DNA from: Alphaproteobacteria bacterium
GTDB taxonomy: Bacteria > Pseudomonadota > Alphaproteobacteria > UBA9219 > RGZA01
Length of the DNA stretch: 64,000 nt
NCBI GenBank assembly: GCA_021732145.1
Contig: JAKFVN010000016.1
Coordinates: 8,457 to 72,456, forward strand
Reading direction: 5' to 3'
The notes beneath the pieces are model-generated. The model worked only from the letters and a program-made list of their open reading frames with translations. It was not told where the DNA came from and ran no database searches. The position numbers and the translations under genes were made by a program. Shown piece by piece: positions 30,884 to 33,211 of this stretch (positions are counted from its first letter, which is position 1; each line of letters opens with the position of its first letter).

Positions 30884-33211
30884 CTAGCCGCCGCCATCGC
30901 CGCCGCCATCACCGCCGCCGCCATCACCGCCACCGTCGCCGCCGCCATCACCGCCACCGTCGCCACCACCACCGTCGCCGCCGCCGCCGTCACAGCCACA
31001 GCCATAGGTGCATGGCGGAGGTGGGGGTGGGACATAGGTGCATTGGTTCTGCTCGGTCACGCGCTCTTGGTTATCCGGGCAGGTGCGGGTTGTCGTTACA
31101 ACAATCTGGCCGCTATAGCCTGGAGGGCATGCACGTGTCGTCACATTGGTCGACGGGGTGCATACTGGCTTGCACTGATTGTCAGTGGTCACCTGATTAC
31201 GGCCTGCGCCATTATTCGAACCATCACAGATATGCGCGGTGGTCGTATTAATATACCCTTCGTAACCAGCCGGGCATGGGCCACAGGTGGTGTTGGTGGA
31301 AGGGGTGCAGGTTACGCGGCACTGATTGTCAGTGGTTACCTGTTCACGGCCTGCGCCATTATTCGAACCATCACAGATACGGGTTGTGGTGGTGTTGATA
31401 TAGCCTTCCTGACCAGCCGGGCATGGGCCGCAGGTGGTGTTGGTGGAAGGGGTGCAGGTTACGCGGCACTGGTTGTCCACGGTCACAATATCGTGGCCAG
31501 GGTCACCGCACATGCATGTATCGCATACATGCTTGGTAGTGGTGCGGATATACCCTTCCTGACCAGCCGGGCATGGGCCGTCCACATAGCTTTCGCTTGG
31601 TACGCAGGTTTGGCTGCGGCACTGGCTGGTGTCGCGGGTTACTTCACTGCGGCCTGCGCCATTGTTCGAGCCATCGCAGATGTGCTTGGTGCGAACGGTC
31701 ACGGTACCGGTCTGGCCTTCAGTGCAAGGCTCGGTTGTCACAACCTCAGAAGGCGTGCAGCTCGTGCAGGTGTTCGATACTTCTGTTTCTGCGATGGTGC
31801 AGTTGCAGGTACCTGGGTTGGTTGGGGTTGTATCGATCGTATTGGTATCACCGACAGCTTTGGTGGCCACGCCGCGGGTCGGCATGCTTTGAGCGGCTGT
31901 CTTCTTGGTGTAACCAACGGGGATGCGGCCATAGGTTGCACGAACGCCGCCATCAATACATGTACGAACCTGGCGCACGGTAATCTTGCCGGTTTGGCCG
32001 GTTGGGCAATCCTTATCCACATTGCCAAGATCCTTGGTTGGAACGCACACGCAGGTATTGGAAACCTGAAGTTCGCTCACAACGCCTTGGGTGCCAGAAC
32101 CTTCTGGGCAAGAACGGTAGTTCTTCTTGGTAATGGTGCCTTCCATGTCGCCATCTGGGCAAGCCGCGGTGAAGGTATCGCCAACTTGGCCTTCTTCACA
32201 CAGGTCGCCGGTGGTGCCTGGAGCTACGCACGTGTCGCTGATGATGTCCATCGAAGGAGCAATCGCATCGTCACCTTGGCAGATTTCGCGAACGATAACG
32301 GAAACGCTGCCAGTCCAGCCTGCTGGACGACCCATTTCCTGGCAGGTCTTGGTAGCAGAATAGGTTCTGTCAACGCAGCCCGTCACGGTTTTCCAAGACT
32401 GGTTTTGGCAGGTCATGCGGAAGTCTACGAATACAACGGTGCCAGCCCCAACGGTTGCATTGTTCGCAGGAGGAGGAATGGGTACGTTTTCAGTGCCGCT
32501 TGTGCCGCAAATCCAGCGCGCGGTGAAGGAGCCAGGGTTGGTGCCATCGCGTGGCTCAAGGTAACCAATGTCATCGCGCGAGATTGGCAATGACACGGGG
32601 GTATTGGTCACGGCAACGGTTTGACGGCCATTGGATGTGCTGGTCGAACCGCTGGTGCCGCCCGAAATCGTGCCCGATGAAGAAGAGCTGGTCGAATAGT
32701 AATAGAACCATGATGAAGAGGTGGTGGTGGTGGTGATGGTTTGCGCAAACCATTGGTTGGTGTTCGTAGAGTTCACCAATCCCTGCAAGCGCCATGAACC
32801 TGCCGAGCAGGTTTGGGTTGGAGCCTTAACGTCTGATACTTGCAAGTTGCGCGCAATACAGCAATTTGCAACGTGAACGTTCGCCGGGGTATTGGTCAGG
32901 AATGCTGTCCATTCTTCGGACGTGTTGAACGGGATGAACAATGGGCTTGTGATACCAGCAGCATCAACATAGTGACATGCGCCGTGCACGTATATTGGTG
33001 TCTTGCTGATGGTCACATCCGGTTCGAGGCGCGCGCCAGTAAAACGATCGCTGGTGATGAGCTGGCCATTTTCGCTGCGCACAGGGCACTGCGTATACGT
33101 CGTGCTGCCCTCTGTAACAGGCTTGTCGATGGAACATTGCGTTGATACTTCAGCTTGCGCTGCACCACACAGCATCAAGGAAACAATCATCGAGAGAATA
33201 ATATTGCGCAT
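30884..33211 (-). CDS. Secreted Cys-rich modular protein, 775 aa, with C-terminal (GGG[G]D)n tail; paralog of 37620-41720
   Basis: Signal peptide [22 protein letters not shown]. The N-terminal ~300-aa domain is shared with the larger paralog ([48 protein letters not shown]). Seven 4-Cys modules follow, including two adjacent near-identical 49-aa units (147-nt period, 31201/31348). Then [13 protein letters not shown] and a 35-aa Gly/Asp tail. Confidence 0.85.
   Translation of the reverse strand: [775 protein letters not shown]

Follow-up and report, generated by a model that had tools for sequence, protein, structure and literature searches.

Secreted repeat proteins with a terminal globular domain are a familiar kind, and fibres of disulfide-stapled modules are a design mostly known from animal extracellular proteins. 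In the thrombospondin type-1 repeat (TSR) arrays of properdin and semaphorin-5A, small disulfide-stapled three-stranded modules of ~50 amino acids (aa) follow one another head to tail in an extended rod. The Sushi or complement control protein (CCP) repeats have four cysteines per module and short linkers and form a beads-on-string chain. In bacteria, the Myxococcus cysteine-rich repeat (DUF4215 / TIGR02232) and other Cys-repeat surface proteins, which come up in the literature on diatom adhesive trail proteins, are secreted and carry tandem Cys-rich repeats. The large repetitive adhesins of Gram-negative bacteria, either repeats-in-toxin (RTX) substrates of type I secretion systems (T1SS) or autotransporters, combine a terminal globular domain with a repeat stalk of variable length, the module number varying between strains. 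Here we describe a gene for a protein of this general kind in a 64,000-nucleotide (nt) stretch of alphaproteobacterial DNA, hereafter the window (GenBank assembly GCA_021732145.1, contig JAKFVN010000016.1, positions 8,457 to 72,456). The open reading frame (ORF) occupies 30884..33211 on the minus strand and, according to the ORF list and its translation, encodes 775 aa plus a stop from an ATG start. Its head, repeat module and tail match no curated family or solved structure. We propose, with moderate confidence, that the product is a Sec-exported, extracytoplasmic stalk-type envelope or surface (adhesive/matrix) protein.

The initial annotation had presented the gene as the shorter paralog of a larger neighbour, with the same N-terminal domain (here the head), module grammar and tail, and the alignments bore this out. 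BLASTP between the two proteins gave E=3e-85, the aligned heads spanning aa 26-320 of each, and further module-to-module alignments gave E=6e-65 and 4e-64. The large paralog lies at 37620..41720 on the minus strand and has 1366 aa and about 20 modules, counted from MRKSVLALL, which is most plausibly the start within the ORF 37620..41780 (minus strand). Only these two copies, 4.4 kb apart, were found in the window by tblastn. The gene, its paralogy and its module grammar are real, and the relation to the large neighbour is an old one.

A word-indexed search of 5.8 billion proteins returned three relatives. P0001 (1338 aa) is the ortholog of the large gene, and P0003 (660 aa, 44% identity) is the ortholog of the small gene; both come from the same alphaproteobacterial metagenome-assembled genome (MAG), WBA_2_308. 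P0002 (963 aa) is of the small type (46% identity) and has an added C-terminal domain resembling the EF-hand-like Ca-binding ends of two further family members, P0006 and P0008; this domain of P0002 gave no EF-hand match. GTDB was scanned for related loci with a 5-sequence alignment as the query. The close relative L005, an uncultured Rhodospirillales MAG whose head core is 90% identical to that of the window, has both genes, and its ortholog of the small paralog lies at L005:7926-10304. From the N- to the C-terminus, the small protein comprises the following features:

33152..33211, minus strand: putative signal peptide of the Sec / signal peptidase I type (aa 1-20), read from the sequence by its basic n-region, hydrophobic core and AQA site (AQA followed by EV).
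32378..33151, minus strand: conserved N-terminal head (aa 21-278), from a family alignment (A2), with invariant C26, C42, C79, D83, W101, F104, C117, C118 and D127.
32597..32761, minus strand: Ser/Thr/Tyr low-complexity insert in a head loop (aa 151-205), with a predicted local distance difference test score (pLDDT) <50 at aa 176-193.
32228..32377, minus strand: module 0 (aa 279-328), a module-like four-Cys three-stranded unit closing the head, with model strands at aa 282-289, 302-309 and 320-326.
32051..32200, minus strand: B module (aa 338-387) ending in SNTC, from module parsing, 90% identical to L005.
31766..32047, minus strand: X module (aa 389-482), from module parsing, with a YGRIPVG motif, a variable low-complexity loop and a CxC...SNTC stub.
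31619..31759, minus strand: A module (aa 485-531), from module parsing, 91% identical to L005.
31466..31606, minus strand: variant module (aa 536-582, CPAGQEGYI...HVC), a subtype conserved in L005 and P0002.
31172..31456, minus strand: two adjacent A modules (aa 586-631 and 635-680) with an extra Cys each (CGPC), a 147-nt tandem repeat detected by Tandem Repeats Finder.
31040..31162, minus strand: last module (aa 684-724), from module parsing, with the loop CPDNQER (CPDNQDH in L005).
30992..31039, minus strand: Pro6 and Cys junction (aa 725-740), PPPPPPCC in L005 and PPAPPPGP before a similar tail in a distant relative, L087.
30887..30991, minus strand: (D-G3-4)n tail of 35 aa (aa 741-775), from the translation.

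By inspection, the N-terminus is of the export type, and the family alignment has the same signal-peptide layout throughout. All peptides quoted in the initial annotation occur in the translation, among them the Ser/Thr/Tyr insert (aa 161-194), the junction and the Gly/Asp (G/D) tail after it. The insert is missing from P0003 and from the large paralog, and its length and sequence differ from those in L005 (12 gap columns). Module 0 is conserved in short-form members of the family. The X module carries a GR.PVG motif common to P0002, P0003, P0005, P0006, P0007 and P0016, with FGRKPVS in P0008, and in L005 its loop has 11 more residues. The large paralogs have a counterpart of the variant at aa 536-582 with an inserted loop (aa 723-791 in the large protein of the window and aa 786-850 in P0001).

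The modules are ~47 aa long, are joined by linkers of 3-5 aa and follow the formula C1-x10-12-C2(P.GQ.G)-x15-C3-x13-18-C4. Types A and B are set apart by the C3 loop; in B modules C3 is part of CPSG and the third segment is shorter. Parsing of the small protein gave the order B, X, A, variant, A, A and CPDNQER variant, i.e., seven regular modules plus module 0, in agreement with the B-X pair and five A-type modules read earlier. The two loops that had been called mutated proved to be conserved subtypes: the CDxCxC...DIVTV loop is found in L005 and P0002, and the CPDNQ loop in L005. The large paralog has the architecture ABxBBBBAxABAAAAAABBB. An alignment of 32 module triplets (A4) contained 15 invariant columns, 12 Cys and 3 Gly, and the 50 cysteines of the small protein are strictly periodic in their spacing. 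The mature proteins contain 49 (window small), 97 (window large), 97 (P0001), 43 (P0003) and 48 (L005 small ortholog) cysteines. The odd count in the window was rejected as a sign of a conserved free cysteine, since parity is not conserved in the L005 ortholog.

The AlphaFold2 model of the head, built on the 27 sequences of alignment A2, showed a mean pLDDT of 82.1 and a predicted template modelling score (pTM) of 0.74, with values >90 at aa 21-150 and <50 in the insert. Three consecutive modules (aa 584-724) were modelled on alignment A4 with a pLDDT of 92.3 and exactly three beta-strands per module. The pTM of this tri-module model was low (0.47), which is consistent with an extended, flexible beads-on-string chain. 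Judging from the strand register of the model, the disulfides probably pair C1 with C3 and C2 with C4. Foldseek searches against the PDB gave no significant match for the head model (best E 1.9) or the module model (best E 0.47), and the head had no match at E<1 in BFVD.

Comparison with the systems described above showed differences in each case. TSRs have six cysteines and a Trp/Arg ladder, whereas the present modules have four cysteines and no Trp motif; there was no Pfam TSP_1 match, and the semaphorin TSR pair 8ckk, at Foldseek rank 12, was not significant (E=1.7, TM score 0.16-0.17). The present modules probably share the C1-C3/C2-C4 pairing of CCP modules, but the latter are ~60-aa beta-sandwiches with a conserved Trp, and nothing in Pfam or Foldseek matched. 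DUF4215 / TIGR02232 likewise gave no Pfam or NCBIfam match at E<=1, and its Cys spacing is unlike that found here. In contrast to the large Gram-negative adhesins, the protein has a Sec-type signal peptide and lacks a beta-barrel, RTX nonapeptides, a retention module and secretion genes, and its modules are disulfide-based rather than Ig-like or Ca-stabilised.

The family did not turn out to be a known annotated adhesin class. Scans of Pfam, NCBIfam (both at a cut-off of E<=1) and PHROGs found no family for either paralog, and neither the heads nor the modules of 56 relatives could be assigned to a family in such scans. When the PDB was searched by sequence, with the single protein as well as with the two profiles, only low-complexity tail matches came back (E=0.03-0.4). 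Nothing relevant was found in the literature on the loop motif, PF26745 or Cys-repeat adhesins in Alphaproteobacteria. An exhaustive HMMER search with aa 1-335 retrieved 54 cluster representatives, 26 of them strong at E<1e-10 (all at E 1.6e-21 or better). A module-profile search of the 5.8-billion set added only two fragments and did not return the known members, probably because word and bias filters suppress such a low-complexity profile. All named members are "hypothetical protein" entries from uncultured alphaproteobacterial MAGs. The full family, with head and four-Cys modules, is rare and unannotated.

Module number ranges from 0-1 to about 20 across the family, in line with the variable number remarked on earlier, and the short forms (314-382 aa) consist of the head, module 0 and a tail. 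Short forms of 364-368 aa with one module and an Ala/Pro-rich tail were seen in two different genomes (L010 and L013, ~6400-9100), directly downstream of a gene with a VWA domain; one of these genomes also has the long form P0017 on the same 774-kb contig. On the contig of P0002 (L008, 3904-7232), the genes that come after P0002 encode Gp34_trimer (phage long-tail-fibre) and Gly_rich_2 domains. A precomputed match of P0002 to PF26745 'SPM' was not reproduced by our Pfam scan. No neighbour is conserved across the loci: VWA lies beside the short forms, DUF2330 beside P0003, and Gp34_trimer and Gly_rich_2 beside P0002.

The ratio of nonsynonymous to synonymous substitution rates (dN/dS) was calculated between the window and L005 for both paralogs and for neighbouring genes:

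purH, heparinase and DUF1513, window vs L005: protein identity 91-92%, dN/dS 0.05-0.07.
Small paralog, window vs L005: protein identity 81%, dN/dS 0.16.
Large paralog, window vs L005: protein identity 75%, dN/dS 0.12.

Within the small gene, dN/dS was 0.07-0.08 for the head and 0.07-0.21 for the modules, spanned 0.07-0.37 over the mature protein and reached 0.58 in the 20-codon signal peptide. The head thus evolves under strong purifying selection. Most indels fell in the Ser/Thr insert (dN/dS 0.21) and the X loop (0.37), with a few more at the C-terminal Pro/Cys junction and in the tail. The module order of the small gene is identical in L005. The large gene differs, with four central B modules in the window vs five in L005 and a last module of type B vs type A. 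In L005 the gene order is large paralog, small ORF, DUF1513, 338-aa ORF, small paralog, heparinase II/III and purH. WBA_2_308 has its large gene between flavin reductase and heparinase II/III genes, as in the window, and its small gene elsewhere, between DUF2330 and lptE.

The two near-identical A modules with a 147-nt period were readily recovered by Tandem Repeats Finder (period 147, 2.1 copies, 90% matches, 31172-31477), and the two 49-codon units share 90% DNA and 92% protein identity. The initial annotation had taken them for a recent unit duplication, which the comparison does not support. L005 has the pair at the same position, with 80% DNA identity within L005 and 74-77% between the genomes. 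As identity is higher within than between genomes, either the pair predates the split of the genomes and is homogenised, or it arose twice independently.

Within a genome, the two paralogs have matching tails. In the window as in L005, both genes end in G/D tails, and the pattern of D spacing is genome-specific: the large-paralog tail has the spacing of the small one except for one DGGG unit, and both L005 genes have regular (DGGG)n. In WBA_2_308, the last 142 aa of the paralogs, including a Ser-rich tail, are 79% identical vs 37% for the heads. Elsewhere in the family the tails are of the ...GGGGC type, W/D/F-rich or formed by Ca-binding domains.

The head core proved to be a wider N-terminal module. 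Its first ~100 residues carry the motif TPI.VH..C+Y.D..G...F.PF.T..EW..F, and the core sits after the signal sequence in many otherwise unrelated secreted proteins. A metagenome scan gave 78 loci, none close (best 45% identity). Fusion partners include Kelch repeats (P0047), fasciclin, a Vgb_lyase-like propeller and Fib_succ_major (L040 and L018), PT linkers and other Cys repeats (L069 and L041). The distant relative L087 (L087:5767-8283) comes from a metagenome contig of 771 kb and has 839 aa; hhalign recognised its head core (probability 98%, E=3e-13). Its stalk is a different ~70-aa Cys repeat (CGDHP.GS.YW...), and it ends in a Pro-rich segment and (DGGG)n, so that the head and this type of tail recur together around a different stalk. 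Together with the module counts across the family, L087 indicates that the stalk is interchangeable and that both ends are kept.

In the stalk reading proposed here, the protein would be exported by Sec and then oxidised outside the cytoplasm. The conserved globular N-terminal head (about 300 aa) would be an interaction domain. The eight small four-Cys three-stranded modules would form an extended stalk, serving as a length-adjustable spacer that sets the distance between head and tail. The Pro-rich junction and the acidic Gly-rich (DGGG)n tail may be a second, genome-specific interaction or attachment element. Dsb-dependent folding is the basis for placing a Cys-rich protein in an oxidising compartment, and the strict periodic pattern of the 50 cysteines makes sense only there. 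The company kept by the head core (fasciclin, Kelch, propeller, Fib_succ_major and PT linkers) is of an extracellular type, which we count in favour of an envelope or surface protein. We infer an extracellular rather than periplasmic location, as well as the orientation, the roles given to head and tail, and any ligand. Export by Sec followed by periplasmic folding and disulfide formation would be compatible with a type II secretion substrate, a class for which there is no defining sequence motif. Several observations weigh against the stalk reading. The Foldseek results provide no structural analogy to back a binding function. No secretion-system gene, outer-membrane translocation device or anchor motif was found in the 64-kb window or the related loci. 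In their DNA, the G/D tails of one genome resemble each other only weakly, with identities of 0.81 and 0.76 within genomes vs 0.65-0.79 between them in low-complexity sequence; tail identity was rejected as proof of gene conversion. Finally, a constant N-terminal module with variable C-termini means that the head could be the anchoring or targeting end.

This last point leads to the main rival, in which the polarity is reversed: the head would anchor the protein in the envelope or target it, leaving the variable array of modules and the tail as the exposed functional part. The constant end of a surface protein is often its anchor. Here the head is the most conserved part (dN/dS 0.07) while the C-terminal parts vary, and its first ~100 residues are promiscuous, being placed before unrelated C-terminal domains. 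However, the head contains no recognisable envelope-binding family (SLH, LysM, OmpA-like or lipobox), and the tail type is likewise kept by both paralogs of a genome, as would suit a partner-specific end. We regard reversed polarity as possible, though somewhat unlikely. A structural or scaffold protein confined to the periplasm, with no exposure at the surface, is unlikely in our view. Disulfide formation is periplasmic in Gram-negative bacteria, and a Sec signal peptide with neither an identifiable outer-membrane translocation feature nor secretion genes nearby would suit such a protein, but arrays of 8 and about 20 rigid modules with Pro-rich spacers would, according to the module model, exceed a typical periplasm, and the domains fused to the head core are of kinds typical of extracellular adhesion or binding. 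We consider distinctly unlikely a bolder version of the surface reading, a new class of Sec-dependent surface fibril in which a new-fold head sits on a rod of new two-disulfide three-stranded modules and the tail is a new sorting or attachment signal matched to genome-specific machinery. Such matching would explain tails kept identical between paralogs by gene conversion, and the tail types that would represent the signal are (DGGG)n, Ser-rich...AGC, ...GGGGC and W/D/F-rich.

The rapidly evolving, possibly antigenically variable surface family suggested by the initial annotation, which would change by module gain and loss, now appears very improbable. Both paralogs evolve 2-3 times faster than their neighbours (81% and 75% identity vs 91-92%), the 147-nt units look homogenised within the gene, the low-complexity loops vary in length, and the large paralog differs by 1-2 modules between two related genomes. 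Nevertheless, dN/dS is well below 1 throughout, from the mature protein to the signal peptide, and the architecture of the small paralog is fixed in L005. Moreover, the window contains just two copies, every repeat keeps the reading frame, no silent cassettes, invertible elements or frame-shifting repeats were found, and the organisms are uncultured environmental Alphaproteobacteria rather than host-associated pathogens. The Gly/Asp-rich tail could also recall an RTX-like type I secretion substrate or a glycine-rich bacteriocin-like toxin, with the tail as the secretion or Ca-binding signal, and the Ca-binding-like ends of P0006, P0008 and, in similar form, P0002 point the same way. This explanation is largely refuted and hardly credible: the protein has a cleavable N-terminal signal peptide, its tail is pure D/G and lacks the hydrophobic position of the GGxGxDxUx nonapeptide, Pfam and NCBIfam gave no HemolysinCabind or T1SS-target match, and the window contains no ATP-binding cassette (ABC), membrane fusion protein (MFP) or TolC genes.

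Several other classes were considered and rejected. A lipoprotein does not fit, as the lipobox L-[ASTVI]-[GAS]-C is absent; the sequence reads LMLC and then the AQA site, and that cysteine is missing in the L005 ortholog. An autotransporter or trimeric autotransporter adhesin would have a C-terminal beta-barrel, in place of which there is the 35-aa D/G tail with no Pfam match. Sortase-like sorting signals (PEP-CTERM, GlyGly-CTERM, MYXO-CTERM and LPXTG) were dismissed, as aa 741-775 contain neither a hydrophobic segment nor a basic residue and NCBIfam gave no match. The Pfam Cys-rich repeats (Myxococcus Cys-rich, Sushi and EGF) had no match at E<=1 in either paralog or in 56 family members. Ice binding, suggested by Thr-rich strands, was set aside because B modules carry Lys/Arg on the same strand.

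Three building blocks thus lie outside the entries of Pfam, NCBIfam and the PDB, despite confident structure predictions: a widespread N-terminal head-core module of secreted proteins, a four-Cys three-stranded repeat, and a tail that joins a Pro-rich segment to (DGGG)n. Should the tail be a signal for sorting or attachment, or the head a new fold for binding or anchoring, they would represent a new Gram-negative route to extracytoplasmic fibres of disulfide-stapled modules. The family is well delimited in uncultured freshwater and soil Alphaproteobacteria, and is of use for annotation and as a structural-genomics target.

The local setting is that of an ordinary chromosome, with aroB, cobST, purH, atpA, ugd, a sigma factor and GGDEF in the window, and no RNA family was found there by Rfam. 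Both paralog genes have their own terminator-like hairpin downstream, and the spacer upstream of the small gene is AT-rich and 296 nt long; both therefore look like independent transcription units. The best explanation is that each paralog is a monocistronic gene of the chromosome and that both have been retained in at least two related genomes. The hairpin of the small gene is as follows:

30834..30861, minus strand: intrinsic-terminator-like hairpin directly 3' of the small-paralog stop, an 11-bp stem followed by TTTTGTTTT (consensus match only).

Three similar terminator hairpins (AAAAACCCCG...CGGGGTTTTT) were observed at 36163-36201, 36832-36870 and 37568-37606, with a mutual identity of 67-79%, each just 3' of a gene on the minus strand; in this order, the genes are the 114-aa ORF, the 168-aa ORF and the large paralog. 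The spacer that separates the 168-aa ORF from the 114-aa ORF contains, upstream of the latter, a perfect 62-nt tandem duplication (36692-36815, 2.0 copies, 100% identical, no Rfam match). Antisense ORFs of up to 516 aa overlap both paralogs (31043-32593 and several across 37735-41118, all on the plus strand). They are shadows of the GC-rich, stop-poor repeats rather than genes, and the one at 31043..32593 was rejected as a gene.

A cytochrome bd oxidase pair, cydA-like and cydB-like from reading of the translations, occupies 28486-30806 and parts the small paralog from the heparinase II/III gene. The pair is missing at the same position in L005, indicating a lineage-specific insertion or loss. 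On the other side of the small paralog, a 319-aa ORF (33508-34467, minus strand) has SxxK (SNTK) and KTG motifs reminiscent of the serine beta-lactamase / penicillin-binding-protein fold. It gave no Pfam or PHROGs match and is kept beside the small paralog in L005 (74% identity, dN/dS 0.11).

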